A stretch of 64,000 bases of DNA from a bacterium (GTDB lineage Bacteria > Patescibacteriota > Dojkabacteria > SC72). Shown one piece after another: positions 14,118-55,742 of the stretch (positions are counted from its first letter, which is position 1; each line of letters begins with the position of its first letter). The notes below the pieces were generated by a model. That model saw only the letters and a list, made by a program, of their open reading frames with translations. It was not told the origin of the DNA and did no database searches. The stretch spans positions 2,516-66,515 of the forward strand of contig JALHDC010000001.1 in assembly GCA_022840695.1 (NCBI GenBank). Reading direction: 5' to 3'. Both the position numbers and the translations under genes were made by a program.

Positions 14118-16646
14118 TTAGAAGCCCATTGGAGGAAATCCTTGCGAAGGTTGTTCCACTTTCTCCTCTACCTTATCCAATTGAGATCTTACCCTTATAT
14201 CATCATTTACTACATTTAAATCTCTTCCATACTTTCTTCTTGATATTTCTTTCACTATATTTGCAACTTCTTTGTTTACAGGAAGATCAAATCCAGAATC
14301 TGGGTACTGTGGACCGTATAGAGTGTTAAGTGAGAAAGGAGAAGGATATATGCCATTGTTTAGAAGTTTAACATATGCATGTCCCATTCCTTGGTTAACG
14401 ATATCCATTGAACTGATATACGATTCAAATTGTGTCTCCAAAAATTCCGCATCTTCAGCACTGCATCTGAATATGAATAGCGATCCTACATTTCCAAATA
14501 CTGCATTTCTTATATCTTCTGGTAATTGCCCAATATATTGGTGAGCTAATGTAAGGTTTAATCTATACTTTCTTGCTTCTGAGAGTATAGAATTAAATTC
14601 TTCTGTAGCAAAGTTTTGGAATTCATCGGCATAGAAGAAGAAGTCTTTTCTTTCTTTTTCGTCCATATCTTCTCTACTTAGGGCAGCAGCTAACATTTTT
14701 TGGACCAAGAGTAGACCTAAGAACGACATATTTTCTTCCCCTAATCTACCTTTTGAAAGGTTAACTATTAAAATCTTGCCTGAGTCCATAACTTCTCTGA
14801 AATCGAAAGATGATTGTGATTGTCCAATTATATTTCTAATGGCTAAGTTTGTAGTGAATTTGTCAAACTTAGATATAAAATATGTAAGAGCTTCTGATTT
14901 TGTCTTTTTGTCTGTTTTAGCTACCTGATCTGTCCAATATCTACGAACCAGTTCATCCTGTATCAAGGGTAACCAATGACTCATAACCCAATCTTCATCC
15001 TGGAGTATTCTTACAACCTCTATTAAAGTAGAGTCCTTTTTAGACATAGCGGTAAGCATAGAGTTCCTTACAGCCTGTTGGAATGCTGGTCCTGCATATC
15101 CTTGGTTATGTGGATCAAAGAGACGGATGAGGAGAGCTATGAAGCTGTTCACTATTTGATGCTTATGCTGTTCATTGTAATACTCCATGATATTGATACC
15201 AAATGGTCTTTCAAAATCTCCAGCATCAAAATATATTACATCTTCTGCCCTATCCGCAGGAATTCTCTCTAATATCATTTCTGCAGCTTGTCCGTGTGGA
15301 TCTATGAAGCAGACACCATCTCCATTATGAATATCCTGAAGTATCATTCTAACCATGAGCCATGATTTACCTGTACCTGTTTGTCCAAGTATATATGAAT
15401 GTCTTCTTCTGTCATCCCTCTTAAAACAGATAGCTTTCTTTTTTCCCCTAAAGTAGTTATTCCCTACCCATATTGTATCTTTCGAATTTATATCCGAGCT
15501 TATCTCGTTACTTGCAATCAGTTCTTTTGAGAGTAACCAGTTAACATTGGGAGTAGAGATATCTTTATTTGGGAAGTGATACAGAGCTGCTAGCTCCTCA
15601 AGGTTTAAAACTGTTTTTTCATCTTCGGGTGTTCTTCTGTATATTACATCATATACAAATTTCTTTTCTTCATTTTTGGAAATTTTTCTTTTTTTCAACC
15701 TATTAACACCTGGATTACTGTATTGGTCAAAAGCCCCGATAATATTGTCTAAATGCATTTTTGCAATTCCTTTATCTGGAGCACTAGTGATTATACGAAT
15801 TTCAGCCATAAGACCCGGTTTGGAAACCTTTTTACTAATTGCCTGCAACTTCTCTTGAGAGACATTTATTCTCTTCTTTTCAGGATCTGAATTATTACTT
15901 TCAACTTTCTGCACAAACTTTTCACCATTTTTCTGCCAACTTGAATCTGTAGGAGCAATGACTATCTGTACCAAAGCTCCTTCGTCTTCAGACATTTTAC
16001 TCAAGGTACTAAGTACATTTGCCATTGGGTCTCCAGTGAAATTTTCAGCCACCCTTATTGGACAGTACGAATCTTCATCTAGACCTAATTTTGCATAAGC
16101 AATTTCAGATTTAGGTGCGAATATATTGTACTGTTTGACTATTGCTACATCAGCATCTTGGTATGATCCTAATATTTGTTTTTCAACCAAATCAGCAAGT
16201 TTTCTAGGACAATGAACAAAGAATCTGATTTCTCCAGGAAGTCCTACTATTTCAAAACTAACACTATTGTTTACACTGAATTTCTCTGCAAGACCTTCCC
16301 CTTTTCCTCCTATTCCATAGAGATTGGCAAACATTTTCTCAGCAACTCCCAACTCTACTTCATTATTTCTCGGGACTCTAACTTCCATTAATACCCCATC
16401 CATAGCTTTTTCATCTCTATCCTTCTTTTTTAATTTTTTCTGTATATACAGAAATCCAACGACTAAACCTCCTACCAAGAGAAGAAAAAATATTATCCAG
16501 CCGTATGGAATATTACGAGTTGCTTGATTGTATAAATCACCGTATGTATCTTTAGGATATTCAACATTAGAACCAGTCTCTATTTCTGGTATTTCTTTTG
16601 GTACAGGACCAATTAATTGTGAATATGTAAATTCCCCCGGATTCAT
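14118..16646 (-). CDS. Type IV secretion-type ATPase, VirB4/VirD4 (TraC/TrwB) superfamily, with N-terminal TM anchor
   Basis: 842 aa. TM IPYGWIIFFLLLVGGLVVGFLYI. Walker A ILGQTGTGKS followed by CFIDPHGQ (compare TrwB GATGTGKS...IVDPNGD). Walker B FFFYADEFQNF. Arginine finger/Q motif EARKYRLNLTLAHQ (compare VirB4 RKxN...ATQ). Walker A lies near residue 430 of 842, proportions like VirB4. Confidence 0.65.
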   Translation of the reverse strand: MNPGEFTYSQLIGPVPKEIPEIETGSNVEYPKDTYGDLYNQATRNIPYGWIIFFLLLVGGLVVGFLYIQKKLKKKDRDEKAMDGVLMEVRVPRNNEVELGVAEKMFANLYGIGGKGEGLAEKFSVNNSVSFEIVGLPGEIRFFVHCPRKLADLVEKQILGSYQDADVAIVKQYNIFAPKSEIAYAKLGLDEDSYCPIRVAENFTGDPMANVLSTLSKMSEDEGALVQIVIAPTDSSWQKNGEKFVQKVESNNSDPEKKRINVSQEKLQAISKKVSKPGLMAEIRIITSAPDKGIAKMHLDNIIGAFDQYSNPGVNRLKKRKISKNEEKKFVYDVIYRRTPEDEKTVLNLEELAALYHFPNKDISTPNVNWLLSKELIASNEISSDINSKDTIWVGNNYFRGKKKAICFKRDDRRRHSYILGQTGTGKSWLMVRMILQDIHNGDGVCFIDPHGQAAEMILERIPADRAEDVIYFDAGDFERPFGINIMEYYNEQHKHQIVNSFIALLIRLFDPHNQGYAGPAFQQAVRNSMLTAMSKKDSTLIEVVRILQDEDWVMSHWLPLIQDELVRRYWTDQVAKTDKKTKSEALTYFISKFDKFTTNLAIRNIIGQSQSSFDFREVMDSGKILIVNLSKGRLGEENMSFLGLLLVQKMLAAALSREDMDEKERKDFFFYADEFQNFATEEFNSILSEARKYRLNLTLAHQYIGQLPEDIRNAVFGNVGSLFIFRCSAEDAEFLETQFESYISSMDIVNQGMGHAYVKLLNNGIYPSPFSLNTLYGPQYPDSGFDLPVNKEVANIVKEISRRKYGRDLNVVNDDIRVRSQLDKVEEKVEQPSQGFPPMGF

Positions 16647-22729: not shown

Positions 22730-23122
22730 TTAGCTGATAATGTTTTTTACAAATTCTATTATATATGGAAGAAACACTATTAATCCTGTTGTTACAGAAA
22801 CAAAAGCACTCACTAAAACAGCTCCAGCACTAACATCTTTGGCATATTTAATATTTACCTTATACTCCAAAGAAACAGTATCACACAATGCCTCTATTGC
22901 ACTATTAACTGTTTCAGATATAAAGACCATGGATATTACTAAGCTTAATGCTATCCAATCTGTATGAGAAATTTGGAAAAAGAACCCAGCAAAGACAACC
23001 AAGAGTGCAAAGATGAGATCTATTCTAAAATTTCTTTCGTTCTTAAATATCAGCTTAATACCATTCCTAGCATGCCCTTGGCTTTTAAAAAAATTTTCTG
23101 CCTGATATTTATGATTTTTCAT
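22730..23122 (-). CDS. dgkA: Diacylglycerol/undecaprenol kinase (DgkA family)
   Basis: Three TM helices and the conserved SETVNSAIEALCD motif of prokaryotic DAGK. Confidence 0.8.
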   Translation of the reverse strand: MKNHKYQAENFFKSQGHARNGIKLIFKNERNFRIDLIFALLVVFAGFFFQISHTDWIALSLVISMVFISETVNSAIEALCDTVSLEYKVNIKYAKDVSAGAVLVSAFVSVTTGLIVFLPYIIEFVKNIIS

Positions 23123-23442
23123 TATTGGGCAATGAAGTCTAAAACTGCATTAAGTACTGTAAATATAACCATTACAAAGATAAAGCCAATAACAGCCCAT
23201 GTTAATGTCCCTTGAGCTTGCTTCACCCTAGCAGGATCCCCTGCAGATATCATCCACATATATCCTCCCTGTATTATGAATATTACACAGATCAAACCTG
23301 CCAATGGAAAAAGGTAACTTAAAAGTTTATCTACCAATGTAGCCAATGTCCCATCTGTTAACCTAGGTGGTTCCTGGGCAAACACCGGAGAAACTAGAAG
23401 AAGTCCGGAGAAAAAATATATATATTTAAATATACTTTTCAT
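23122..23442 (-). CDS. VirB2/TrbC-like small membrane pilin-type protein, paralog 1
   Basis: Signal peptide (…LLLVSPVFAQ), then two hydrophobic helices separated by the conserved loop GGYMWMISAGDPARVKQAQGTL. Confidence 0.55.
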   Translation of the reverse strand: MKSIFKYIYFFSGLLLVSPVFAQEPPRLTDGTLATLVDKLLSYLFPLAGLICVIFIIQGGYMWMISAGDPARVKQAQGTLTWAVIGFIFVMVIFTVLNAVLDFIAQ

Positions 23443-23717
23443 TATTTAGTAGTTAAAACTTCATTTATTACAAATTCTATAATTGTTGGGGATATAAATA
23501 CAAGTATTAAACCTAAAAGAGAGAATGCCATTGATCTTGTAGCATCTTTTATCTTATCCTCATCACCAAAAGAAAGTATGAACTTAAAGCCAGAAATGAC
23601 TAATGATATAACCACTATTACTACGGAGAATGAGATGGCAAAGTTTATTATAAAGAATACAAATTCTGTTAAATTCTCATACCCCGTGTTGTTAAGAATA
23701 CTTAAATCCACCAACAT
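23442..23717 (-). CDS. VirB2/TrbC-like small membrane protein, paralog 2
   Basis: Two hydrophobic helices with loop SFGDEDKIKDATRSM; start overlaps the stop of paralog 1 (translational coupling). Confidence 0.5.
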   Translation of the reverse strand: MLVDLSILNNTGYENLTEFVFFIINFAISFSVVIVVISLVISGFKFILSFGDEDKIKDATRSMAFSLLGLILVFISPTIIEFVINEVLTTK

Positions 23718-23741
23718 ACGGGTATTAATTAAAAATATCTA

Positions 23742-24086
23742 TTACTTAAGAACGTTTGTTAATACAAACTGTACTAAGATTACGGAGATAAAACAGATAA
23801 CCAAACCAACGATTGCATATGTCAATGATTTTGTTGCTTTTTCTATCTTTGATTCATCTCCAGCTGCTGTGATATATGTATATCCACTAGCTATCAATAT
23901 TGCAACACATACTAAAGCTGCTAAACCAATTACTAAGTTCAAAACATCTTTAACCCATGGTAAAAAATCTTTACTTAATGGACCTTCTGGTAAATACTCT
24001 GTACCTGTTTGTGCTAAGACTGCAGAAGCTAAGTAGAGATTAGAAGCAACTCCTGAAACTACTGCTAATATCTTGGTCATTTTCAT
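23742..24086 (-). CDS. VirB2/TrbC-like small membrane protein, paralog 3
   Basis: Signal peptide (…ASAVLAQ) plus two helices and loop ASGYTYITAAGDESKIEKATKSL. Confidence 0.55.
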   Translation of the reverse strand: MKMTKILAVVSGVASNLYLASAVLAQTGTEYLPEGPLSKDFLPWVKDVLNLVIGLAALVCVAILIASGYTYITAAGDESKIEKATKSLTYAIVGLVICFISVILVQFVLTNVLK

Positions 24087-24161
24087 ATATTCTGTTTATT
24101 AAATATTATATTAATTGTGATAATTATATATAAAGGATTAGTTTTATGCAATACTAATTCT

Positions 24162-24458
24162 TTATAACCCCAATATCTTTCCAATAACAAAATCTATTAT
24201 TGTTCTAGCTAAAAATACAATAACCAAACCTATGATTGCAGCTGTTATACCCTTTTGACCTTTTTCGATCTTTTCAGGATCTCCTGCAGCAGTTATGAAC
24301 ATATACCCTGAAGCTACTAAGATAATTACAGCAACTAAAGCTGAAAATCCTACAAAGAAATCAATTGCAGTACCCACTTTTGAATTCAAAACGGAATCAA
24401 GAGTAGGATCTCCCCAATTTATTAATTTATCTCCAATAAACTGAGTTATATTTGTCAT
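24162..24458 (-). CDS. VirB2/TrbC-like small membrane protein, paralog 4
   Basis: Loop ASGYMFITAAGDPEKIEKGQKGI between two hydrophobic helices. Confidence 0.55.
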   Translation of the reverse strand: MTNITQFIGDKLINWGDPTLDSVLNSKVGTAIDFFVGFSALVAVIILVASGYMFITAAGDPEKIEKGQKGITAAIIGLVIVFLARTIIDFVIGKILGL

Positions 24459-24474
24459 ATTCGTATATTAATAA

Positions 24475-24825
24475 TTAATTATAAATATCCAAACCCAATG
24501 TATTACTGATTATCAATAGTATTGCAACAGAAAGTAATACTACTAAAAAACCAATAATTGCATTAGTTAAAATTTCCTTCCCTTCTTTTAATTTGTCCGG
24601 ATTTCCTTGACTAGACATAAGCATATATCCAGCATATACCACTAAAACAACCACACATATCACAGCCAAAGGAACAGCGATATCTACGATGGCATCTATA
24701 AGTTGATTCTCATCGGCAATCCCACCACTCTCCAATTTACCTAAACTTTCACTTAGTTTTGAACCCAAATCCTGAGCATATGCTTTTTGCACTATTAAAT
24801 CATGAATTTTACTAATAATTTCCAT
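24475..24825 (-). CDS. VirB2/TrbC-like small membrane protein, paralog 5
   Basis: Loop AGYMLMSSQGNPDKLKEGKEIL between two hydrophobic helices; most divergent copy. Confidence 0.5.
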   Translation of the reverse strand: MEIISKIHDLIVQKAYAQDLGSKLSESLGKLESGGIADENQLIDAIVDIAVPLAVICVVVLVVYAGYMLMSSQGNPDKLKEGKEILTNAIIGFLVVLLSVAILLIISNTLGLDIYN

Positions 24826-40935: not shown

Positions 40936-42405
40936 CTAACTTCTTAATATCTTAATACACTTATCGATCTTTTCATCTGTTCTACGGTCATTCCCTCTTA
41001 AGGCTTCTATTTTTTCGTATGCATGTATAACTGTTGTATGGTCCTTTCTATTTACTTCTTTTGCTACCCTTTCAAGTGGCATATCCAACTCCTTTCGAAG
41101 TATATACATTACAATCTGTCTGCACTTTGCTACATATGCTGTTCTTCTATTTCCCTTTATTTCATTTGGTTTTACATCAAACACCTCTGATACTGTTTTT
41201 ATGACCTTGGTAGGTGTAATTCTTTTTCTCTTTGTATCAATATCTATTTGCAGTATTTTTGCTACATCCTCTTCTGTTGGATTAATACCTAACTTGAAAA
41301 GAGATACAACTTTAGTTAGTGCTCCCTCTAGCTCCCTTATATTGCTTTCTACATTTTTGGCTATCAATTCTATATATTCATCAGGTATTGAGTAGTTCCT
41401 ATCTGTTAAACACTGTCTTAGTATGGCTATTCTTGTTTCGTAATCTGGTGCTTGGATATCCGCAACCATCCCTCCTTCAAATCTAGATCTTAGTCTATCA
41501 GTGATATTCTTTATTTCCTTAGGAGGTCTATCTGATGCTAGTATTATCTGTTTATTAGCTTGGTATAGGGTATTAAAGGTATGAAATAGCTCCTCTTGTG
41601 TTCTAGGGTATGTTTCCACGAACTGGACATCGTCTATGATTAAAAGGTCCACTGCCCTGTATTTATTCCTAAAATCCTCATTTCTTTTTGTCCTAATAGC
41701 CTCAACCATTTCATTTAGGAATTGTTCTATTGATATGTAAACAACCTTTTTATTTGAATCTTTTCTCAATATCTCATTTCCAATAGCTTGCATAAGGTGT
41801 GTTTTTCCTACACCTGTCTCTCCGTAGTAGAAAACAGGATTATATGCATTTCCAAGATCTTCTAAAACTGCCTGTGCTACAGCCTCTGCTAATCTATTAT
41901 TGGAACCAACTATGAAGTTAGAAAAAAGATACTTAGGGTTTAGGTGTGACTCTTCTAATGACTTTTTATACAAGTGTTCCTCTTTCTCAGCTGAGGAAAA
42001 AAGATCTAGGACCTCTTCTTCCTTTTCCGAACCTGGATTATGATACTCATATCTTGGTTTACTACTTTCTTTAGATTTTTCCCTTAAGTTTATTTCCAAT
42101 TCAAAATTCCTATCACAAGTTTTTTGAAGAGCATTTTTAATTGCATACTGATAATCTTTTAAAATCTTCTCTCTTTTATATGCAGCATCACAAGACATCT
42201 GCACTACTCCATTATTTATTGACTCTATATATACATTCCCAAAGAGACCACCAAATTCTCTCACCCCGATTGCTTGTTTCAAATACTCTTGAGCTACTTT
42301 CCATACTTCATCTGGATCCCATTCATTATCGTTATTACTCACAACAGTAGTGTTACTTGGTATCTTTTCAAAATGATTTTTAAAGTCTGCTTTGTTCATT
42401 AGCAT
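40936..42405 (-). CDS. dnaA: Chromosomal replication initiator DnaA
   Basis: Walker A GETGVGKTHLMQAIGNEI, Walker B LLIIDDVQFV, sensor/arginine regions, C-terminal DNA-binding helix VAMYILRKELDMPLERVAKEV...HTTVIHAYEKI. Confidence 0.95.
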   Translation of the reverse strand: MLMNKADFKNHFEKIPSNTTVVSNNDNEWDPDEVWKVAQEYLKQAIGVREFGGLFGNVYIESINNGVVQMSCDAAYKREKILKDYQYAIKNALQKTCDRNFELEINLREKSKESSKPRYEYHNPGSEKEEEVLDLFSSAEKEEHLYKKSLEESHLNPKYLFSNFIVGSNNRLAEAVAQAVLEDLGNAYNPVFYYGETGVGKTHLMQAIGNEILRKDSNKKVVYISIEQFLNEMVEAIRTKRNEDFRNKYRAVDLLIIDDVQFVETYPRTQEELFHTFNTLYQANKQIILASDRPPKEIKNITDRLRSRFEGGMVADIQAPDYETRIAILRQCLTDRNYSIPDEYIELIAKNVESNIRELEGALTKVVSLFKLGINPTEEDVAKILQIDIDTKRKRITPTKVIKTVSEVFDVKPNEIKGNRRTAYVAKCRQIVMYILRKELDMPLERVAKEVNRKDHTTVIHAYEKIEALRGNDRRTDEKIDKCIKILRS

Positions 42406-44866: not shown

Positions 44867-46303
44867 ATGCAAAGAAAATTTATCAATAAAGAAAGAGTAT
44901 TTATTATTACTGTTTTCTTTCTTTCTTCCATATGTCTTTCTATTCTATTTCAAGAATCTTTGTATAAATCATTGTTCCTCCTGCTAACTATTTTAATCTG
45001 GGGAGTATCCACTTTTTATACAAAAAGTATTTCTCTTTCCTCTTTTCTGTATATATTATTTGTTCTTCCATTCAATGTTACCTTACAACTCCCCCACTCT
45101 GTTCATATCGTTGGTACAGAGGTTTTGTTATCTACTCCATTCGTCTCAGGAATTTATGTTAATTACTTAGTCCCTACGGTTTCAATCCTAGATATTGCGG
45201 TTTTGCTTTTTCTGGCTTCTGCTATAGTGGAAAATGGTATTTCTGTTTATTGGAGACTATTAAAAAATTGGAAAAATGGAGTTTTAATTTTTTTAATTAT
45301 ATTAATTGCCCAAGCTTTAATGCTTAGTAGTTTCCTCTCGCTGTTTAACTCTATCCGATTATTTTTATATATCCTTTTTGTCATAACGATAGTAGTAGAG
45401 TTTAAAAAGAAATTTTCTCCTAAAACATATTCCTCTGTTCTTTTAATCTTCCTTTCTAATACTATTGTTCAAGGAGTAAGTAGTATGATTCAATTTACCA
45501 GAGGATCTTCATTGGGTATGAATTTTATCGGAGAATCACAGGTTGTAACTGGTATGCAGGGATCTAGTTTTTTAGAGTTGGGAGGACAATTATTTCTAAG
45601 GGGGTATGGCACATTCCCTCACCCTAATTTATTAGCCGGATACGTTCTTTTAAGTATACTTGTTGGAATTCTATTCTTTGAGAGACAGAAAATATTATCA
45701 ACTATTTTAATTATATTTTCCTTTATTGTTCTACTTTTTACCTTTTCAAGGGTATCAATACTTCTTGCTGGAATATTTTTCTTAGCTATTTTTATGAAAA
45801 AGATTATAAGTAAAAAATATATACTTAGTTCTTTCGTTCCCACTCTGCTATTTGAAAGATTTATGAATCTGTTCAATAACGGAGATAGTGGTTTGAATGA
45901 CAGGATATTACTTCTAAAGAAGAGTTTTGAATCATTGAAAGATAATTGGTTCTTAGGAGTGGGAGTTGGGAACTTTGTTAAATCTATGGAAAAGATGATT
46001 CCTAGGACTGCAAGGGGAATACCATTATTACAACCAGTTCACAACATTTTTATTCTTGCTATTTCTGAATTAGGATCAATTGGTTTCCTATCTTTTGTAT
46101 ATGTACTCTTTTACTTTTGTATATCTAGTATTAAGAGATGGAATTTAATAAAGAGTCTAGTAGTTCTCTATATTTTAATCATAGGAAGTTTTGATCACTA
46201 TCTTTTCTCTCTTCCTCAAGGATTAATGATATTCTCACTTCTTTTGATAATTCTCTGTTTAGATCATCTGTACGATGATAAAGAGGATATAAAGAAGAAT
46301 TAA
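44867..46303 (+). CDS. O-antigen ligase/Wzy_C-family polytopic membrane protein (possible O-oligosaccharyltransferase)
   Basis: About 12 TM helices. Loop with FTFSRVSILLAGIF...NDRILLLKKSFESLKDNWFLGVGVGNF...PVHNIFILAISELGSIGFL resembles the Wzy_C/WaaL/PglL signature (R...G.G.G.F...H.N...E.G). Confidence 0.45.
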   Translation: MQRKFINKERVFIITVFFLSSICLSILFQESLYKSLFLLLTILIWGVSTFYTKSISLSSFLYILFVLPFNVTLQLPHSVHIVGTEVLLSTPFVSGIYVNYLVPTVSILDIAVLLFLASAIVENGISVYWRLLKNWKNGVLIFLIILIAQALMLSSFLSLFNSIRLFLYILFVITIVVEFKKKFSPKTYSSVLLIFLSNTIVQGVSSMIQFTRGSSLGMNFIGESQVVTGMQGSSFLELGGQLFLRGYGTFPHPNLLAGYVLLSILVGILFFERQKILSTILIIFSFIVLLFTFSRVSILLAGIFFLAIFMKKIISKKYILSSFVPTLLFERFMNLFNNGDSGLNDRILLLKKSFESLKDNWFLGVGVGNFVKSMEKMIPRTARGIPLLQPVHNIFILAISELGSIGFLSFVYVLFYFCISSIKRWNLIKSLVVLYILIIGSFDHYLFSLPQGLMIFSLLLIILCLDHLYDDKEDIKKN

Positions 46304-47167
46304 GCCTATCCCCTCCTTTTTACTTATATAATACTTCTTTCCTAGTATCGCAAAAAGTATAAATATAACAGTTGCAAAGATGAGGAAAAGGAATTCCTCC
46401 ATGAAAGGCTTGAAATCAAGAGTTGTTATAAAAGAGGAGATACTTGTAACAAGAAGAATATCAAATATTGTAGAACCTAATATATTCCCCAACCCTATTT
46501 GTAGATTTCCCTTCTTTATTATTGCCAGTGAGGTTATTAACTCTGGTATAGATGTCCCTATAGCTAATATGAAGTATCCCACGGTTGTTTTTGCTAATCC
46601 ATAGCTTTCTGCAAAAAGTACAATATTATCTACACAAATCTTTCCAGAAAATATTAATAACCCAAAGGAAACCAAAAGGATTAATACATTAAATCTCGTC
46701 TTACTTGCTATTGTAATAGTATGGTTGTTATGTTTGGCAAGGTATATAGCAATGATTAATAAAATTACTGCTACTATTCCAATAATCCAATTCATTTTAA
46801 ATCCGAAGAGTAGGATAATGAGGAAGAATGATGAAAACATTATTAAGTTTGTGGGAATATTTCTCTTTATATCTATTTCGGATAGTTTATAGTTAGAAAA
46901 TAGTGCTAATATTCCTAATATCAATGATGATTTAACTATTGCGCTTCCTAATATTGTAGATATTGCAATTTCTGGGTGTCCAGTCATGGTTGAATATGTA
47001 CTTATCACCAGATCAGGCAGAGAAGTCCCTAGTGCTATGAGAGTAAAACCTATTAAAAAGCTACTAATCCTTATTTTTTTAGCTAATGCTATAGATTGCT
47101 CTATGAAGATCTCTGCAGACTTAATAAGAAAGAGTAACGAGAGTATTGCGAGTAAAATTTGAGGCAT
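46259..47167 (-). CDS. CaCA-family cation/Ca2+ antiporter (YrbG-like)
   Basis: Two alpha-repeat motifs GTSLPDLVISTYS and GTSIPELITSLAI; ~10 TM helices. Confidence 0.75.
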   Translation of the reverse strand: MPQILLAILSLLFLIKSAEIFIEQSIALAKKIRISSFLIGFTLIALGTSLPDLVISTYSTMTGHPEIAISTILGSAIVKSSLILGILALFSNYKLSEIDIKRNIPTNLIMFSSFFLIILLFGFKMNWIIGIVAVILLIIAIYLAKHNNHTITIASKTRFNVLILLVSFGLLIFSGKICVDNIVLFAESYGLAKTTVGYFILAIGTSIPELITSLAIIKKGNLQIGLGNILGSTIFDILLVTSISSFITTLDFKPFMEEFLFLIFATVIFILFAILGKKYYISKKEGIGLILLYILFIIVQMI

Positions 47168-47236
47168 ACTATTTTAAGAATGAATTATCCTTATGAATAG
47201 TACCATATATTAGGTATTTGTAGAAGTTTTTATGGG

Positions 47237-47254
47237 AACGGAGAGAGAGGGATT
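47237..47254. repeat. 18-nt exact direct repeat of the 3' end of tRNA-Ser(GGA) (AACGGAGAGAGAGGGATT), att-like
   Basis: Identical to 48031..48048 (discriminator, acceptor 3' strand and part of the T stem of the tRNA at 48033..48119). The two copies bracket only the ClpP-like gene. Confidence 0.5.
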
Positions 47255-47271
47255 TCTCAAAATGATTCTTT

Positions 47272-47955
47272 TTATATAACTTCATCAATAAATCCCATTT
47301 GAAGTGCTTGTTCAGATGTTAGATATGTTCCAACACCCATGTTTGCTTTCATTAAATCTTGAACACTTTCAGGAGTCATATCCTTTCCTGCTTTATTAAC
47401 CCTGTCCGCAACTATTTCCGAATATAATGTATATAGGGCTCGAGATTCTGCAATTTGGTGTTCTATTCTGTCGACTTCTCCCTCAACATATGTACTTATA
47501 GGATGGAAAAGCATTCTTGAATTTTCTGGCATCTGTCTAATATCGCCTGCCTGTATAATAAGAGCTCCCATCGACATTATCGGTCCATATCCTGTGATTG
47601 TTATTGGAACATTATGCTTTCGGGAGAACACTCTTAAAAGATCGTGAACTCCAAAGCCTGAATTCACAGAACCTCCAAAAGAGGAGAAATTAACCTGAAG
47701 GTGACTGAGGTCATTCTCATCATTTTCTATCTTGTATAAATCTGTGCTTACCTGTTTAAACATCTCTTGGTCTACTCTTCCATTGACAGTAATCTGGGGT
47801 TCTTGCCTGCGTAACCTTTCTGGAGAAATAATCCCATCGTATCTTTCATAAAATCCTTTTGGAACTTCTTGGCTCTTTCCAATCTCCTTTATTGCATCAC
47901 CGGATAAAGATGTTTGTCTATCTATGTACTTTGGGTAATCTTCTTGTCCTGTCAT
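47272..47955 (-). CDS. ClpP-family (S14) serine protease-like protein with N-terminal extension
   Basis: NFSSFGGSVNSGFGVHDLL...ITGYGPIMSMGALII...SRMLFHPIS aligns to the ClpP active-site regions (Ser in MSMG, His in FHP). No clpX adjacent. Lies inside the tRNA-Ser direct repeats, so a phage prohead-protease-type origin is possible. Confidence 0.7.
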   Translation of the reverse strand: MTGQEDYPKYIDRQTSLSGDAIKEIGKSQEVPKGFYERYDGIISPERLRRQEPQITVNGRVDQEMFKQVSTDLYKIENDENDLSHLQVNFSSFGGSVNSGFGVHDLLRVFSRKHNVPITITGYGPIMSMGALIIQAGDIRQMPENSRMLFHPISTYVEGEVDRIEHQIAESRALYTLYSEIVADRVNKAGKDMTPESVQDLMKANMGVGTYLTSEQALQMGFIDEVI

Positions 47956-48032
47956 AAAAGAATATTAACAGTAATATAAATAAATAACAAGATAATCAGA
48001 TAGTAGTTGTTTTTCAAGAAATTAGGCCGAAA

Positions 48033-48119
48033 CGGAGAGAGAGGGATTCGAACCCTCGGTATGATTTCTCATACGCACGCTCTCCAAGCGTGTCCTTTCG
48101 ACCACTCAGGCATCTCTCC
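48033..48119 (-). tRNA. tRNA-Ser (GGA), class II
   Basis: Revcomp GGAGAGATGCCTGAGTGGTCGAAAGGACACGCTTGGAGAGCGTG...CGAGGGTTCGAATCCCTCTCTCTCCG. Anticodon stem CACGC/GCGTG, loop TTGGAGA. Confidence 0.85.
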
Positions 48120-48183
48120 CTATATTTAGGCTATTCTATCAAATGTTGTTGATATTAACTAGATTAGAAGATAATATTAATTA

Positions 48184-48906
48184 ATGAAAGATTTTCCTAA
48201 AAAAATCTGGTTAATAGTCCTCTTCTTTTTATTACTATCCCTTTCGATCAATCTACTAAAAGAAAATCATGAAAAAGAGGAAGTACTCGGAATAAATAAT
48301 AAAAATATTGAGGAGGTAGTAATAGAAGAAAGCCTTAATATTGCAAAAGCACAGCTAGATATATCTAATAAAAGTGTAGAAAAGAATGAAGTCTATGTCC
48401 CCTACTATTGGAAGAATGGTTTAAATGTTGATTCTAAAGATTATTTATTAGGATATATTCCTTCTATTAATAGTTTTTATGAGTATTATGTATCTAAAAA
48501 TAAGATACTATTAGGAGTTAATCCTCGAAAATATGATTATGATATGGAAGAGGTAATGAATGTCGTAGATAATCGAGAGATGATATTTTCAAATGGTATT
48601 TTGAATGAAAGTCAGTATTTTCAGTGGGAAGAAAATTTATGTGATTCTTTCAGGTTGGATTCTGTAGGGAAGAAAATTTTTACCTGTTTAAACTGGTTGA
48701 ATTGGAGTGGAATTGAATTATCTAAGAAAAGTTTTGTATTAACAGATTGTAGTATAGAAGATACTGATGGATATTGCTTATTTGAGGAGTATAGTGAGAT
48801 ATACTATGATAGTAAGAAGTTAGGAGAAAAAAGGTGTTTCCAGAATGAGAATGAAGAATATCTTTGTGATTATGATGAGTATGTTAAACAAATAGAATAT
48901 AATTAA
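48184..48906 (+). CDS. Secreted/membrane-anchored Cys-containing protein, unknown function (240 aa)
   Basis: N-terminal hydrophobic segment IWLIVLFFLLLSLSINLL; eight Cys in the C-terminal half; first gene of a three-gene plus-strand block between two minus-strand tRNAs. Confidence 0.5.
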   Translation: MKDFPKKIWLIVLFFLLLSLSINLLKENHEKEEVLGINNKNIEEVVIEESLNIAKAQLDISNKSVEKNEVYVPYYWKNGLNVDSKDYLLGYIPSINSFYEYYVSKNKILLGVNPRKYDYDMEEVMNVVDNREMIFSNGILNESQYFQWEENLCDSFRLDSVGKKIFTCLNWLNWSGIELSKKSFVLTDCSIEDTDGYCLFEEYSEIYYDSKKLGEKRCFQNENEEYLCDYDEYVKQIEYN

Positions 48907-48923
48907 ATTTATTTACTGCCTTA

Positions 48924-50678
48924 ATGAGATTTATTAAATCATTTATATTTTCACTCTTTCTCATAATACTTCTCCCCTCCACCATTCTTGCCAGAGAGAT
49001 TATTAGAGAGGAAGACGGAGAAAGATGCATAGATTTGGAAGCTGCTTATGCAGATATTAATGATTCGAGTAAGGCATTGACAGGGCAGGATAATAGTGTT
49101 GATGCGGTTAAGAGAGTAAATACCGTAGCTTCTCTGACTAATATTATGTCAATCTTAATAGGAGATAGTATTTACTGTGTGAACGATGAAGCTTCTGTAT
49201 CGAATATCGGGGGATCAGATGACAATGGGCTTATTGGACAGTTATTAAATGCAAATTCACAAATGATTGCTTCGTTCCCGACAGTCAATGTCGGGCAACA
49301 CCTTGCCGAGGAGTTTATCCCTGGTTATCGCGACAATGTAGGAATTTTTGCATTGGGGATAGGAGATTATGAAGAAGATGATCTTGATAAAGAGGAAAGG
49401 AAGGGACAAAAAAGAATAAAGCAAATACAAGAGAAGGTGACAGATCCCTTACAAGAGCAATTTTTAGAAGATGCTAACCAAATTATTGAAGAGAGTGAAA
49501 ATTTGGAAAGTGTAGATACTTCAAACCCTGTTACAAATTCTGGTTATAACTATTTAAAGGATAATTTACATCTTGATGAGATTTGGGGTACTTTTAGAAA
49601 TATTGCCTACCTGGGATATGTAATTATTATTATTATTGTTGGTTTCATGATCATGTTCCGGAAGAATCTTCCTGGGCAAATCGTTGTATCGTTGGGAAAT
49701 ACAATCCCCCAGATTATATTCGGGCTCATTTTAGTAACATTTAGTTTCGCCATTGTTGGAATAGTTATGGATGTAGGTAAAACATCAATGAAAGTGATAG
49801 GTTCTATGTTTGTATCTGTGTATAAAGAGGAAGATCCTACTGTAACGGAGGAAGATTTGGTAGGAGTTGAAGATATTGGTTCCTTAACCGATGAAGCCTT
49901 AATAACTGCTAAACAGGACGGTTTTATAGTCTCTAATCTAAGAAAGCTGCCATTGATAGGCGAGAATTTAGCTGATTCATATTCTGGAACTGCCGGAACA
50001 GTTAAGAAAATTGTTGGACAATCAGTTGGTATATTTACATTAACTGCATTAGCAGATGTGATGACTAAGAATATTCAAAATATGCATTTTGATGTAAATA
50101 TTTTGGGGGTTGATTTGGTTTTGGATATCGCTGCGGAGACAATAAAGAGCATTATAACCCTTCCTCTGAATGCGATAAAAGTTGGTTTAACAACCTTTCT
50201 TATTAGAAACATATTACTTCTCCTAGTTTGTCTATATGCTTCTTTTAAATTGTTCATTACGATGTTAATGACATATCTTAAATTATTCATCAATGTCATA
50301 TTTGGCCCTATTCAGATAATGTTAGGTTCTCTTCCTGGAAATTTCTCTTCAACAACAAAATGGTTTAAATCCGTTATTGCAAATGTATTCACATTTGTAG
50401 GAATATACTTAGTTATAAATGTATTTGCATTCATATCTTCTGCAGTTGATCCTGCTCAATTCAATTTTTTTGGAAATAAAGGAGTATTTTGGCCAGATTG
50501 GATAGTCTCTTTAGAGGGAGTTATTTTAATAGCAGGCTATCTATTTGCAGCTAATATGCCAACAATAATTAATGGTGCACTAAAGATAGAGCAAAGTAAG
50601 GAGATGTCTATGGTTGGCCAATCAGTACAGAAGGCTGCAGGAAAAATACCTTTTATAGGTGGAATGTTTAATGGTTAG
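48924..50678 (+). CDS. Large polytopic membrane protein with signal peptide and ~200-aa extracytoplasmic domain (possible VirB6/TrbL-like)
   Basis: 584 aa. Cleavable-looking signal (FIFSLFLIILLPSTILA), then an acidic ectodomain, then at least 6 TM helices (IAYLGYVIIIIIVGFMIMF; IIFGLILVTFSFAIVGIVM; LLLLVCLYASFKLFITMLMTYL; VFTFVGIYLVINVFAFI; VILIAGYLFAANMP). Architecture, not sequence identity, suggests VirB6/TrbL. Confidence 0.55.
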   Translation: MRFIKSFIFSLFLIILLPSTILAREIIREEDGERCIDLEAAYADINDSSKALTGQDNSVDAVKRVNTVASLTNIMSILIGDSIYCVNDEASVSNIGGSDDNGLIGQLLNANSQMIASFPTVNVGQHLAEEFIPGYRDNVGIFALGIGDYEEDDLDKEERKGQKRIKQIQEKVTDPLQEQFLEDANQIIEESENLESVDTSNPVTNSGYNYLKDNLHLDEIWGTFRNIAYLGYVIIIIIVGFMIMFRKNLPGQIVVSLGNTIPQIIFGLILVTFSFAIVGIVMDVGKTSMKVIGSMFVSVYKEEDPTVTEEDLVGVEDIGSLTDEALITAKQDGFIVSNLRKLPLIGENLADSYSGTAGTVKKIVGQSVGIFTLTALADVMTKNIQNMHFDVNILGVDLVLDIAAETIKSIITLPLNAIKVGLTTFLIRNILLLLVCLYASFKLFITMLMTYLKLFINVIFGPIQIMLGSLPGNFSSTTKWFKSVIANVFTFVGIYLVINVFAFISSAVDPAQFNFFGNKGVFWPDWIVSLEGVILIAGYLFAANMPTIINGALKIEQSKEMSMVGQSVQKAAGKIPFIGGMFNG

Positions 50679-50689
50679 AGGTAAATGCA

Positions 50690-52630
50690 ATGGATAAAAA
50701 AAACGATTTAAACATATATGATTCGATTTTTAGTTTCATATTTGATGCTCAAGAAAAGAAAAGAAATAAACCGTTTCCTAAAAATATTGATGGAATGTCC
50801 GATTATGCTTCTGCTTTAGTTGAAATAGGTACTCAACCACTACTCTATCCCTTAGAATCAGCATTTAAATCCATTAATAGTAGTGTTGCAAAAGCAACCT
50901 CCATAGATTTAGGTGGAGGTATTTCAGCTGGATTGGGATCTGGAGCCTTTATGAATCCATCAAAATATTCCAAATCAGAAGTATCTAAAAATAGGGCAAG
51001 AGCTAAGTGGGCTTCTATAGGGGGATCCCTACATTATGCAATCGATGGGGCATTAATATCTTTGTATGCGAAATCAAATGGAGCTTCTTCGAGAACGGCA
51101 TATGAGGCAGGTGATCTCTTCAAGGAACTTTTGAAAGAAGAAATATATTCAGGATATAAATACTCAAATCACCATATATTTGGATCCGATTCTTTATCAA
51201 AAAAGGAAATAGAGGAAAAATCTAAGTCGAAGAGAAATGATCAAATATTCGGATATCGTTCTAAGGAGGAAATATTAGGATCAGAAGAAGAATTTTTTAA
51301 TAGGGCTGTTCAATTAAGAGCCTCTACCCTATCAGGATTGAATCCAAAACTTTCGAAATCTTGGTTAATTGCAAATGTTAAGGATTTACAAAAGGAACCT
51401 TCTAAAAATGAAAGAATAAAAAAGACTGCACAATTACTTTCCTTGCAAGGTTTAGATATGAAAGAAGGTCTTAATGTCGGATATTCTCTTTGGGGAAGTG
51501 CTAAGACATCCGATTTAGGATTATTCAGAGTTGGAGATGAAGTATGGAAATCAAAAAAAGAAGAAATAAGTAGAAATTATAATTTAGATAGGCAAGATAT
51601 TGGGAAGATTGAATATTATAGAGAAATAGAAGATATTAAAGAGAGGGAGAAAGCAGTATATACTTTTTTGAAGAATGATAAAAATTTGGATCCCAAAATT
51701 GCTTTTAATATTGCAAAGGAAATATCCAATATTCAGGTAAATGATGGGAATACCATTGCAAAGAATTCTATATATTGGTCATTAGCAGCTGATATTACAG
51801 AAAAACTAAAAAAAGATGGTAATTATGTAGAAATACCAGAAGTTAAAAAAAGGGTAGAGTCAATCCTACAACCATCTTCTAAATCAACTTTGGGAATGAA
51901 ATTTGAGAGGGGAATACTTATAGGAAATTGGTTAGCAAATAGTGGTTCTTGGGGATCTATATTAGTTGATGGAAATTGGGAGAAATTTGGAGTTGAGGAT
52001 ATTAACTTTACTAAAATAGTTGAGCCTGTATCTGTTAAGAAAGATGGTGAAGAGATAGGAACTTATTACAAAGGGGCTAATTCTGTTATTGGTAGATTAT
52101 TAGGTGATTTTTATTATTTTCATCCCAATAATTTAATAAAGGGATTATTTATTGATGGGAGTCTTTGGCTTAAGTGGGCCTGTGATAAGCAAGGGAATCT
52201 AAATACTAAAAGTTTCGCATATTTGATGAGTCAATTGAGTCTTAATAATTCACTGTCTTTCTTAATGAAACCTTTTAGGGGACTGACAAACAATGTTATT
52301 AAGATAATCAATCCTTTTTTTGAAGGGACAAAGAGATTTTTGAAAGGATTTTTTACCAAAATGTTAGGAGCTACTGGAATTGGTGGAATTTTGGTTAATC
52401 TTTTGATGAATGCAATCTCTGATAAATTTGCATATGTAATTAATCAAATTGTTATGGTTGTAGTATTAGGAGCAATAGGGATAGTATTTGTGATATTTGA
52501 TGCCTCTGGAGTAATGTATTCAGATGAGCCAATTAATACAGTAAAAGGGAAGGAGGATACCCAAGAGAATATTAATAACGAGAAGATATTTACTGATGAT
52601 GATTTTTTTGTAGATACTAGTGATAATTAA
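50690..52630 (+). CDS. Large protein with C-terminal TM helices, unknown function (646 aa)
   Basis: Soluble Lys/Ser/Gly-rich N-terminal 540 aa, then two or three TM helices (MLGATGIGGILVNLLMNAI; VINQIVMVVVLGAIGIVFVIF) and an acidic tail. Confidence 0.5.
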   Translation: MDKKNDLNIYDSIFSFIFDAQEKKRNKPFPKNIDGMSDYASALVEIGTQPLLYPLESAFKSINSSVAKATSIDLGGGISAGLGSGAFMNPSKYSKSEVSKNRARAKWASIGGSLHYAIDGALISLYAKSNGASSRTAYEAGDLFKELLKEEIYSGYKYSNHHIFGSDSLSKKEIEEKSKSKRNDQIFGYRSKEEILGSEEEFFNRAVQLRASTLSGLNPKLSKSWLIANVKDLQKEPSKNERIKKTAQLLSLQGLDMKEGLNVGYSLWGSAKTSDLGLFRVGDEVWKSKKEEISRNYNLDRQDIGKIEYYREIEDIKEREKAVYTFLKNDKNLDPKIAFNIAKEISNIQVNDGNTIAKNSIYWSLAADITEKLKKDGNYVEIPEVKKRVESILQPSSKSTLGMKFERGILIGNWLANSGSWGSILVDGNWEKFGVEDINFTKIVEPVSVKKDGEEIGTYYKGANSVIGRLLGDFYYFHPNNLIKGLFIDGSLWLKWACDKQGNLNTKSFAYLMSQLSLNNSLSFLMKPFRGLTNNVIKIINPFFEGTKRFLKGFFTKMLGATGIGGILVNLLMNAISDKFAYVINQIVMVVVLGAIGIVFVIFDASGVMYSDEPINTVKGKEDTQENINNEKIFTDDDFFVDTSDN

Positions 52631-52724
52631 AACTCCCCGATAGTATATTAAATTTGCTTAATATAAGGGCTATAGTTGTTATTGTAGTACGATGTTACAT
52701 CTACCTTAAAGGAAAGAATGTTTA

Positions 52725-52801
52725 TGGCGTACCTGGCCGGAATCGAACCGACAACCTACTGCTTAGAAGGCAGTTGCTCTATCCGATTGAGCTACAGGTA
52801 C
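52725..52801 (-). tRNA. tRNA-Arg (TCT), CCA encoded
   Basis: Revcomp GTACCTGTAGCTCAATCGGATAGAGCAACTGCCTTCTAAGCAGTAGGTTGTCGGTTCGATTCCGGCCAGGTACGCCA; anticodon loop CTTCTAA. Confidence 0.85.
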
Positions 52802-52845
52802 ATGACAAGAGCCATTTTATCAATAAATGAGGTTAAAATAAAGGA

Positions 52846-53139
52846 TTAGTTAACATTTAGAACAGATATCATAACTCCACCCTGTCTTTTTGGGAATCTT
52901 TTTAGAAATTCTGGGAACTTCTCTGGAAGGAATTCGATCTTTGTTTCTTTCTCAGAAAATTCATAATTCTTCAAATATTCTTGCCCTTCTTCCCAATTCA
53001 TACTTTTTAGATCATCTATTATTTTATTTTTATCAACCTTTGGTTTTACAGAACTTTTTGCAATAAGTTTAATCTTTACTCCTTGTTCATTACTTTCTAT
53101 TACAGAGATCTCTTTTTCTATTTCTTTATCTAATTCCAA
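52846..53139 (-). CDS. Hypothetical 97-aa protein
   Basis: Lys/Glu-rich ORF; no motif recognised. Confidence 0.35.
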   Translation of the reverse strand: MELDKEIEKEISVIESNEQGVKIKLIAKSSVKPKVDKNKIIDDLKSMNWEEGQEYLKNYEFSEKETKIEFLPEKFPEFLKRFPKRQGGVMISVLNVN

Positions 53140-53189
53140 ATCCCAATCTTTGTCTGTTTCAAATAAGTTCTTATCCTTTGCTTCCTTAG

Positions 53190-53992
53190 TTAGTAGCTCT
53201 TGATGCTATCAGATATAACTTCGCTTTTTAGAGAATCTTCTATAATCAGCCATTTATCAGATAGTCCTCTTAGTTCACTTTCTCCCTCCTCTATACCTAT
53301 TTTCTTCAGATCTTCCACACCAGCATCCACATCAGCCTTAGAAAGGACGGTATATTCCTCTTTAGATCCCCCTGTTATTGCTCCACTATTATTAAGTGCC
53401 AATAGTTCTGTGCTAGAGTATCCTTGGAATGTAAAAAGTTGACCAGAAGGTAGATTATATTCTTCTCCAACTTCTATAGCTGTAATTCCAGCTACCGTTA
53501 AAGTGGTACATTTAACAGATGTATCTGAATCTAATGTATAGACTTTTCCTTTTGTAGAAAGTGTGCTTCCTGCAGGAAGGTTAAGTGCTGCTGTCCCATC
53601 ATTACAATCCTCTTTTATTTGGTAGATCTGGATTTCTCCACACTTTCACTTTTTACAGGTATCTTAAGATTTTCAAAGTCTATCTCTTTTATATTCTCAT
53701 CTCCTTGAAATTCCCTCTCTATACTTACCTCTTTCGCTTCTACATATATTTTAACTTTAACGAGTAATGCTGTATTTAAATATATAAAGCCAACTAAAAG
53801 AATTAAAAGGACAACGGATATAGCTACTAAAGGTGCCAATTTCTTAAGTTTTATTGGTATTGGAATATTATTAAAAAAGTTTTTAATCTTTTCCCCAATT
53901 GCTCCTACATTAGGTTTAAAGTTCCTTCTTTCCTTTATCCTTTTTTCTGGTTGTATCTTTTTGGGATCCTGTGTTTTCTGGCTAAAATCCAC
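53190..53992 (-). pseudogene. Frameshifted gene: N-terminal TM-anchored part (53615..53992, GTG start) and C-terminal beta-rich part continuing to 53190 in another frame
   Basis: The frame that ends at TTA 53615..53617 is followed in the +1/-1 frame by an uninterrupted, protein-like frame from 53645 to the stop at 53190 (…TLTVAGITAIEVGEEYNLPSGQLFTFQGYSS…). That frame has no canonical start before the TTG at 53402. The junction lies in an A-rich stretch (ccaaataaaagagg). Confidence 0.4.
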
Positions 53993-54072
53993 CTTAGAAA
54001 GATCAGGATCAATAACAATGGGGAAATCTTCGTTATTGTTATTAGCAGAAGGTAAATCCTCATCTAGAGAAA

Positions 54073-54510
54073 TTAACAGACAATTGCACTATCTATTCTT
54101 TTTTGAAAATCAGATATGTTGGGAGTATCTTCTTGTTTCTCTACAACAGCTTCTACCTTTGGTGTTGTTTTCTGCTTTGGAGGATTTATTCTATTGGCAT
54201 AGTTAATCTCTTCCTTCTCCCAAATGTCCTCTGTTGGGAAGGATGGAACATCTATTGTTGAAATCCCCGCTAGTTTTGCGTTCCTTAATCCAGTTGGATT
54301 TTTTATAATCTGAGCTACTAATAATTTCTCACTTTCATCTGCTGTTTCTAATAGGACTTTTAGATTAATTGGGCTAATCAAAAGATCTGTTTCTTCTGCA
54401 AAAGTGAGTACGATCCTTTCATTTTGAGAATCTAATATCGCAGTAACAATATCTGTTAATTCGTCATCCTTATTTATTACTATTTTTGTAATTTTCTTTT
54501 CTTCTTCCAT
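54073..54510 (-). CDS. Hypothetical 145-aa protein downstream of the FtsA/PilM-like gene
   Basis: Start overlaps the stop of the upstream actin-like ATPase gene (coupled); no TM helix; no motif recognised. Confidence 0.45.
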   Translation of the reverse strand: MEEEKKITKIVINKDDELTDIVTAILDSQNERIVLTFAEETDLLISPINLKVLLETADESEKLLVAQIIKNPTGLRNAKLAGISTIDVPSFPTEDIWEKEEINYANRINPPKQKTTPKVEAVVEKQEDTPNISDFQKRIDSAIVC

Positions 54511-55742
54511 TACAATTCTTTCTCTTTCATATCATATACAAATTTAGTTAATGCTGCAGGTGTAATATCAAATATGTTTCTCAAATTCCCACTATTATCC
54601 TTTATGCAATCTAGTTTCTCAGGTGTAAAAAAATCGATTTTAGGTACTACTGGAAAAGGTAGAAACTTTTTCCAAGGAAATTCTAACATAACTTCTTTCA
54701 TCTCCGGTAATAAGGATCCTCCACCACATAAATATATTTGTGTGGGAAAGGAACTAATGTCATCACAGTATGAAAGAGCGGATTTTAGTGTTTTCATCCA
54801 TAATTTAGCTACTGGATACACAATTTTCTGAACATCCCTTGAGAGTTCCCTGTTTAAAGTCTTTTGTGAATATTTAATTTTTCTTTGTTCTGCATATCTA
54901 TATTCTAAATCAAGCATTTTTGCTATTTCTTTAGTAAAAGTTCTTCCTCCAAATGCAAACATTTTAGTTTCTACAACATTTCCCTTCTCCACTACGGCAA
55001 TATCTGTTGTCCCTCCTCCGATATCTATGAAGATTGCAGAAAAATCTCTGTTTGATGATCCAGAGTATGCCCTGGCTACAGCAAAAGGTTGAGAAACTAT
55101 TCCTAATACATTTAATTGAATCTCTGAAGCCACCTTTTTTAATGCTTCTGTGTATGTTTTTGGAGCAAATGATGCATAAAAGTGTAATCGAACATCCCTC
55201 CCTTTATACCCAACTAAAGAATCAACTGGCATTCCCCCTATTTCCAATCCTGTTTGTGTAATATGTAATATCTCAATATCATCGTTAGTTAACCCAATTC
55301 TTTGGCTTAAATCTTCCTTTCCGCTTGCCTCTATCTTATGTCTAATTTGAGAAAGTATCCTTCCTTCCTCCTTTTCTGTGACTTCTTTTTCATAATTTTC
55401 TTCTCTTTGATAATTAACTACTATGGATACTCCTTGTATATATTCTCCAGCTATACCCATAACAACATTTTTAGGAAATTGTTCTTCTGGTAGGCGATCA
55501 GTTAATTCGGAAATGGCAAGTCTGCAATTCTCTAAAACAGTATCTAAATTTTTGATAATGCCACTCTTCATCGCATGTTGTTGTTGCTCTACCCTTGAAA
55601 TTTTCTTTACTTCAATACCTAAATCATTAATTGAAAAAAGTATACTCTTGAGTTGTTCTGTCCCAATATCCAAAGCCACTATGTTATCTCCCGCTCTCAG
55701 AGAACTTTTGGGAGATGTTTTCAAAAAAGGCAGATTTAGCAT
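54510..55742 (-). CDS. Actin-like ATPase of the FtsA/PilM family
   Basis: Phosphate-1 ALDIGTEQLK, phosphate-2/adenosine motifs FIDIGGGTTDIAVV and YLCGGGSLLPEM; 410 aa. No ftsZ adjacent. The downstream small TM protein could be PilN-like, so FtsA versus PilM is unresolved. Confidence 0.75.
   Translation of the reverse strand: MLNLPFLKTSPKSSLRAGDNIVALDIGTEQLKSILFSINDLGIEVKKISRVEQQQHAMKSGIIKNLDTVLENCRLAISELTDRLPEEQFPKNVVMGIAGEYIQGVSIVVNYQREENYEKEVTEKEEGRILSQIRHKIEASGKEDLSQRIGLTNDDIEILHITQTGLEIGGMPVDSLVGYKGRDVRLHFYASFAPKTYTEALKKVASEIQLNVLGIVSQPFAVARAYSGSSNRDFSAIFIDIGGGTTDIAVVEKGNVVETKMFAFGGRTFTKEIAKMLDLEYRYAEQRKIKYSQKTLNRELSRDVQKIVYPVAKLWMKTLKSALSYCDDISSFPTQIYLCGGGSLLPEMKEVMLEFPWKKFLPFPVVPKIDFFTPEKLDCIKDNSGNLRNIFDITPAALTKFVYDMKEKEL

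Follow-up and report, generated by a model that had tools for sequence, protein, structure and literature searches.

TrwI/VirB6 of R388 (PDB 7O3V chain F) is the inner-membrane stalk-base subunit of a conjugative type IV secretion system (T4SS). DotA of the Legionella Dot/Icm type IVB system (PDB 9NGY, DotA-IcmX protochannel) possesses a signal peptide, two transmembrane (TM) helices, five long hydrophobic helices and an extended domain, and is VirB6-like in structure; its partner IcmX is structurally VirB5-like (bioRxiv 10.1101/2025.06.23.660953). The T4SS of Patescibacteria is MPF-FATA-related, relaxase-less and often located near dnaA (Quinonero-Coronel et al. 2025, PMC12102498). In that survey, VirB6 was recognised by hidden Markov models (HMMs; MPF-T VirB6 and PrgH) in 480 cases only, with few or none in Microgenomatia and Gracilibacteria. 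Genes of the type IV coupling protein (T4CP) were mostly far from virB4, and the Dojkabacteria genomes listed were VirB4-positive (PMC12102498). Patescibacteria comprise a large share of bacterial diversity and are host-dependent; the T4SS-like apparatus is the one envelope machine with genetic evidence of a requirement for epibiotic growth, obtained for one Saccharimonadia strain (PMC12102498). The locus described here is a block of three genes, ORF1, ORF2 and ORF3 (ORF, open reading frame), in a stretch of 64,000 nucleotides (nt) of a member of the Dojkabacteria (GenBank assembly GCA_022840695.1, contig JALHDC010000001.1, positions 2,516-66,515), hereafter the window. The trio is a conserved operon of Dojkabacteria and fairly probably encodes a VirB6/DotA-like channel module of a T4SS-like conduit.

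The trio and its borders are as follows (lengths in amino acids, aa; tRNA genes from ARAGORN, proteins from the ORF list).

48033-48119, minus strand: tRNA-Ser(GGA), left border of the trio, conserved.
48184-48906, plus strand: ORF1, 240 aa, acidic ectoprotein with a predicted N-terminal anchor.
48924-50678, plus strand: ORF2, 584 aa, with a modelled VirB6/DotA-like fold, the putative core of the module.
50690-52630, plus strand: ORF3, 646 aa, with a basic N-terminal domain and a predicted C-terminal membrane anchor.
52725-52801, minus strand: tRNA-Arg(TCT), right border of the trio, conserved.

Both sources agree with the original prediction, made from the sequence alone, of three plus-strand genes between two minus-strand tRNAs. 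ORF1 and ORF2 are separated by 17 nt and ORF2 and ORF3 by 11 nt; with gaps so short the three genes are probably transcribed together. A scan for promoter and terminator consensus sequences gave nothing above shuffled expectation. The window covers the region around the replication origin of a small genome with low GC content. The cumulative GC skew has its minimum near 42 kb. The minus strand carries dnaN and dnaA at 39.4-42.4 kb (dnaA at 40936-42405), and the plus strand carries yidC, jag and a Wzy_C-type gene at 43.5-46.3 kb. The trio lies to the right of the origin, a few kb away, on the leading strand and in the direction of yidC, jag and the Wzy_C-type gene. It is therefore co-oriented with replication, and its minus-strand neighbours run against replication. 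The strand switch noted earlier is thus true of the immediate neighbours, yet the trio itself follows the fork. No significant match to ORF1, ORF2 or ORF3 was obtained in Pfam, NCBIfam, PHROGs or, with phmmer, the PDB sequences, and the early statement that the three proteins lack recognisable enzymatic motifs stands. Prophage or defence content of the block was considered and rejected, no PHROG matches being present.

Homologues were scanned in one genome per species. Relatives of ORF2 are encoded in 449 stretches, of which 85 loci were fetched (designated below by L numbers). Three classes are distinguished.

Class A: the ORF1-ORF2-ORF3 trio of Dojkabacteria, linked to the origin.
Class B: some 50 loci, ranging from Dojkabacteria to a Nomurabacteria-annotated genome; for example L003 6501-19266, L005 and L006.
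Class C: 11 loci of Roizmanbacteria/Levyibacteria type, in which the ORF2-like gene adjoins pilin-like arrays or lies within about 5 kb of them.

The ordered trio is present in 18 of the 85 loci (class A), the sole exception being L022, in which ORF1 was undetected. In L001 and L002, whose ORF2 proteins are 35-40% identical, the gene order is dnaA-rpmH-rnpA-yidD-yidC-jag-Wzy_C-ORF1-ORF2-ORF3; in L001 it runs on with FtsA-like, RNase J, LeuRS and MetRS genes, the same as in the window. Gene dnaA is within reach upstream in 7 of the 18 trio loci. A gene of 567-606 aa follows the trio in eight of them, with an FtsA-like gene after it in six. tRNA-Ser(gga) occupies the same place in the same orientation in L001, L002, L007, L010, L015, L017, L018 and L021, and tRNA-Arg(tct) is kept in ten relatives. 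The whole unit of tRNA-Ser, trio and tRNA-Arg is found in eight relatives, mostly origin-proximal, at 26-48% protein identity. The trio is an ancient, conserved chromosomal core operon of the class Dojkabacteria, and both tRNAs belong to the ancestral arrangement. Its GC content (0.324) does not deviate from that of the flanks (0.319 and 0.325) or of the window (0.334). No integrase or recombinase was found by Pfam scan among the three ORFs or their neighbours.

Two departures from the common arrangement were seen. In L014 (CAZPFV010000005.1) the trio has a different neighbourhood: the 9 kb upstream contain neither dnaA nor Wzy_C, and the one tRNA found in the locus, tRNA-Lys(ctt), lies some 700 nt past the trio on its downstream side; the trio can consequently move as a unit within the lineage. 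In the closely related genomes of L001 (8068-12637) and L021 (9911-14531), ORF2 is tandemly duplicated (632-636 aa and 878-899 aa) in the origin-linked operon, which is otherwise identical.

ORF2 has a signal-like N-terminus, a 193-aa ectodomain with a net charge of -23 (isoelectric point, pI, 4.2), a conserved TM pair and several very long hydrophobic helices, as seen from hydropathy, charge and the AlphaFold2 (AF2) model. The architecture proposed for it beforehand (signal, acidic ectodomain, multiple hydrophobic helices) is borne out by all three. The model has a mean confidence (pLDDT) of 80; helices at residues 217-244, 251-303, 396-468, 474-507 and 530-552 are modelled with pLDDT 90-97. 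The protein follows the VirB6-class plan of a TM pair plus several long hydrophobic helices, and its model is similar in three dimensions to solved VirB6-class structures. The family comprises 175 detectable homologues, all unannotated. The invariant core of the family falls within the first TM pair and shows GFMIMFR and TFSFAxxG as motifs. No match to a transporter family was found at any level (Pfam, NCBIfam), and a full-text literature search returned no description of the family. The model places ORF2 in the VirB6/DotA structural class as a highly divergent member, invisible to sequence models; it has the VirB6/DotA fold and probably works like those proteins. A 573-aa family member in L052 (9671-11392) gives a sub-threshold match to the TrbC/VirB2 pilin at residues 127-175 (E 5e-4), a hint that part of the ORF2-type proteins resembles a pilin hairpin.

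ORF1 has one N-terminal hydrophobic anchor followed by a 214-aa acidic domain (pI 4.4). The signal anchor noticed originally is present. For a protein described as Cys-rich, six Cys (2.5%) is a modest count, but all six are invariant in 17 syntenic orthologues of 27-38% identity. This invariance fits an extracytoplasmic, disulfide-bonded domain. The reference T4SS proteins used as hhalign targets (TrwI, PrgH, TrwJ, TrwG, PrgL) were single sequences, and negatives against them are weak. Among them, the ORF1 profile gave probabilities of 0.25% for TrwJ/VirB5, 0.28% for TrwG/VirB8 and 2% for PrgL. Against PDB sequences the profile had one match only, to an unrelated protein (E 0.29). By gene position, size and topology, ORF1 is a candidate exported partner of ORF2.

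ORF3 consists of 555 basic residues (pI 9.2) devoid of TM segments, one or two hydrophobic segments at 558-611 and an acidic tail of 35 aa. By the positive-inside rule, the basic N-terminal part and the acidic tail suggest an N-in, C-out topology, with the N-terminal domain predicted to be cytoplasmic. The AF2 model has pLDDT 61, with a confident helical core at residues 200-390. Neither the model nor the sequence of ORF3 has a match, and its tentative assignment to VirB8, VirB5 or TraG-N is not upheld. A word-seeded homologue search with the ORF3 profile retrieved no new sequences; the relatives bearing an M23 domain were reached only by exhaustive HMMER search, in which the family amounts to only 52 clusters out of 1.84 billion representatives. 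Its distant members correspond to the class B partners and are 770-995 aa long. Peptidase_M23 is present in 11 of 30 distant members (best E 5.7e-14), within a tail of 180-230 aa past the TM region; in the origin-linked type the tail is only about 30-35 aa. No peptidoglycan hydrolase domain was found in ORF3 itself (no Pfam match; 35-aa tail past the TM anchor). By this comparison ORF3 is the hydrolase-less paralogue, having apparently lost the cell-wall hydrolase of its M23 relatives.

Class B clusters are essentially unannotated. The order is an fn3/purple-acid-phosphatase-N protein, a 485-aa protein, the ORF2 paralogue (about 440-520 aa), the ORF3-family protein (800-1130 aa), a 336-aa protein, and SH3, UvrD and G5/transglycosylase proteins. 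The 485-aa protein is anchored and Cys-rich, with at least eight invariant Cys; hhalign revealed no similarity between it and ORF1. Such a cluster may constitute a separate envelope machine. Class A and class B copies occur together in at least seven assemblies. The class C arrays resemble T4SS pilins of the window, and one L048 protein, checked directly, matches Pfam T4SS_pilin.

Two T4SS-related features are located elsewhere in the window.

23122-24825, minus strand: five tandem T4SS pilin (VirB2-like) genes, 91-116 aa (Pfam PF18895 T4SS_pilin).
14118-16646, minus strand: VirD4/T4CP-like P-loop ATPase, 842 aa (Pfam T4SS-DNA_transf, E 2.4e-9; TrwB_AAD_bind; DUF87).

All five pilins score above the Pfam gathering threshold (E 2.6e-13 to 3.8e-6). 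The array is situated between a diacylglycerol kinase gene and a gene for a 1020-aa AddA/UvrD-type helicase-nuclease. The ATPase matches the NCBIfam VirD4-like CD1115 family (E 2e-12) below the curated cut-off, and it does not reach the curated cut-off of any NCBIfam T4CP or VirB4 model. Its N-terminal part is unusually long (about 400 aa), with a TM segment at 45-72 and the Walker A motif at residue 421. The ATPase gene is adjoined by a tRNA-Ile (14009-14083, minus strand) whose anticodon is TAT (UAU). A UAU-anticodon tRNA-Ile is an uncommon bacterial way to read AUA.

In the reading preferred here, ORF2 would most likely oligomerise in the cytoplasmic membrane, where, as the analogy of TrwI/VirB6 and DotA suggests, it would provide the base, or protochannel, for a type-IV-secretion-like conduit. 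ORF1, encoded directly upstream, would be a membrane-anchored extracytoplasmic partner seated on the ORF2 ectodomain; it is proposed as such because its gene position and topology match those of VirB5 relative to VirB6. ORF3 would serve as a C-terminally anchored scaffold or coupling subunit, with its large basic domain in the cytoplasm. Distant ORF3 relatives ending in M23, a putative extracellular peptidoglycan peptidase, pair with ORF2 paralogues in a second cluster, conserved across Patescibacteria. The module would work with scattered T4SS genes, the partners being the five VirB2-like pilins, the VirD4-like ATPase and a VirB4 encoded elsewhere in the genome; a possible partnership with the pilin array and the ATPase had been raised in the original prediction. 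Conservation and synteny, the lack of island signatures, the fold match of ORF2, the profiles of hydropathy and charge, M23 in paralogues and the closeness to pilins in relatives are observations; membrane topology, oligomeric state, contacts between partners, linkage to the ATPases and the substrate to be carried are inferred.

Several results weigh against this reading. Pfam TrbL/VirB6 and NCBIfam models miss ORF2 and 10 relatives (E up to 1), the ORF2 family profile retrieves nothing from PDB sequences, and hhalign of ORF2 against TrwI and PrgH gives probabilities of 0.1-0.2%, at the low sensitivity of single-sequence targets. ORF2 is assigned the VirB6/DotA fold and is not filed in the Pfam family, the sequence-level tests all having failed; the VirB6/TrbL likeness proposed originally is supported by fold and context and not by sequence. 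ORF1 and ORF3 match no T4SS component, both by sequence and ORF3 also by fold. Pilins and ATPase are 24-34 kb from the trio. Upstream there is regularly a Wzy_C/O-antigen-ligase-like gene, a possible sign of a function at the cell surface that has nothing to do with secretion. No VirB4 or T4CP homologue was found by phmmer within 10 kb of ORF2-family genes (0/85 loci), nor, by Walker-A scan, any unexplained large P-loop ATPase within that distance. The phmmer queries PrgJ, TrwK, TrwB and PcfC had no matches among all ORFs of the loci and the window. Sensitivity of that search is low, since the VirD4-like protein of the window was also missed, and the Walker-A scan is the backstop.

The absence of VirB4 and T4CP genes from the 85 neighbourhoods is expected if the VirB6/DotA fold of ORF2 belongs to an envelope machine independent of VirB4. 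Such a machine would be a Patescibacteria-specific conduit or wall-spanning complex for host attachment, uptake or envelope remodelling, present in two paralogous versions, with and without an M23 hydrolase. It agrees with the class B neighbours, which are fn3, M23, SH3 and G5/transglycosylase proteins together with UvrD, and not T4SS ATPases, with the Wzy_C-type gene adjoining class A, and with the joint occurrence of class A and class B copies. It is rather unlikely. Microgenomatia-type relatives lie within a few kb of T4SS_pilin arrays, and in the window pilins and VirD4-like ATPase share one origin-proximal region. In Patescibacteria it is normal for T4SS genes to be dispersed, and for one Saccharimonadia strain VirB6 is reported to be essential (PMC12102498). 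In a more definite form, the conduit would be built on a VirB6/DotA-like protochannel that dispenses with VirB4, with an M23 version in class B and a hydrolase-less origin version in Dojkabacteria, ORF1 and ORF3 being new structural components; this form is rather doubtful. If true, a VirB4-less conduit could be a route by which reduced episymbionts exchange material with host cells.

It is distinctly improbable that the likeness in fold is fortuitous and that ORF2 is a generic polytopic transporter or flippase serving the Wzy_C protein in surface-polymer building, with ORF1 and ORF3 as accessory envelope proteins. The conserved adjacency to Wzy_C and the failure of every sequence-level test for VirB6 are compatible with it. 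ORF2, however, lacks a match to any transporter family in Pfam or NCBIfam, and class B and class C copies do not lie beside Wzy_C. Wzy_C and the trio are not one operon, because a minus-strand tRNA, and in some genomes further genes, intervene.

That the block is a horizontally acquired, tRNA-bounded island carrying surface or secretion machinery, as the original prediction had it on account of the tRNAs at both ends, the strand switch and membrane proteins none of which was recognised, is scarcely credible: the reading falls because core synteny of the three genes, which that prediction itself had named beforehand as refuting it, is present, with both tRNAs included in eight relatives at the protein identities given above; the proposed direct repeat of the tRNA-Arg 3' end near 48.1 kb is missing, the 20-nt 3' end having no second copy in the window at up to three mismatches; integrase and deviant GC are absent; the block sits on the 5' side of tRNA-Ser; and the sole att-like repeat brackets the neighbouring ClpP-like gene, not the trio. 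A false island call is thereby removed, and flanking tRNAs, a strand switch and unknown membrane proteins were insufficient evidence for one here.

The content to the left of the block is lineage-specific: on the minus strand are an Na/Ca exchanger gene, present in some relatives, and the ClpP-like gene. An exact 18-nt direct repeat, AACGGAGAGAGAGGGATT, equal to the 3' end of tRNA-Ser(gga), is found at 47237-47254 and 48031-48048. Between the two copies lies only the 227-aa ClpP-family gene (47272-47955, minus strand); among PHROGs it matches phage head-maturation proteases best, and it occurs in none of the relatives examined. The segment 47237-48048 looks like a remnant of roughly 0.8 kb, with attL and attR, of an element integrated in tRNA-Ser. 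To the right, also on the minus strand, are fragments of a 631-aa gene, an FtsA-like gene and RNase J. The conserved gene between tRNA-Arg and the FtsA/PilM-like gene (567-631 aa) is split into four frame segments in the window (52846-54510, minus strand). Relative to the deposited contig GCA_022839185.1, the window is without 106, 64 and 61 nt after 53199, 53618 and 54080, together 231 nt, and has 100% identity to it over the rest of the compared stretch, 45924-54560. The GenBank version of the gene is intact, 631 aa, with a weak Baseplate_J match on record. Reading of the split gene with genetic code 4 or 25 was rejected, the breaks being indels relative to GenBank.

The locus offers a candidate for the missing VirB6 subunit of Patescibacteria. 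Current HMMs do not recognise its family, which occurs at least 449 times in genomes representing species. Also defined are two partner families of unassigned fold, and a pairing of VirB6-like with M23-bearing proteins that recurs. Within the known Patescibacteria T4SS, the trio would be a divergent VirB6/DotA-like module that had escaped notice, with two partners specific to the lineage. The setting of the window agrees with the Patescibacteria T4SS (PMC12102498) in phylum, origin-proximal position, VirB2-like pilins and a VirD4-like T4CP away from virB4. It differs in that the ORF2 family escapes the HMMs used there and is not near virB4, and in that ORF1 and ORF3 resemble, as far as sequence tests go, no T4SS component catalogued in that work.

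ORF2 and TrwI are both polytopic helical membrane proteins with a TM pair followed by long hydrophobic helices. In R388 (NC_028464), trwJ/VirB5, encoding an exported protein of roughly 230 aa, is directly upstream of trwI, and ORF1 likewise precedes ORF2; similarity between ORF1 and VirB5 is not detectable. Identity of ORF2 to TrwI is about 9%, without HMM or profile similarity. ORF2 is 240 aa longer, with the signal peptide and 193-aa acidic ectodomain in addition, and, unlike TrwI, does not have its gene in a virB operon beside those for VirB3, VirB4 and VirB8-11; its host is a monoderm-like candidate phyla radiation (CPR) bacterium.

Tn916 (Orf15-Orf14) and pCF10 (PrgH...PrgK) have a VirB6-like gene and then a hydrolase. 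Class B mirrors this with an ORF2 paralogue followed by the M23-bearing ORF3 paralogue, though ORF2 has no sequence similarity to PrgH. The hydrolase of class B is of M23 type only, versus lysozyme/C40 or SLT/CHAP in the Tn916/pCF10 systems. It is C-terminal, past an N-terminal domain of roughly 550 aa and a TM anchor; ORF3 of the window has the same parts without the hydrolase.

DotA is only 10% identical to ORF2, and the partner proteins of the two are not detectably related. The plan is nevertheless common to both: signal peptide, extended extracytoplasmic domain, two TM helices and long hydrophobic helices. DotA acts with a separately encoded exported partner, IcmX, of which ORF1 is the candidate counterpart.

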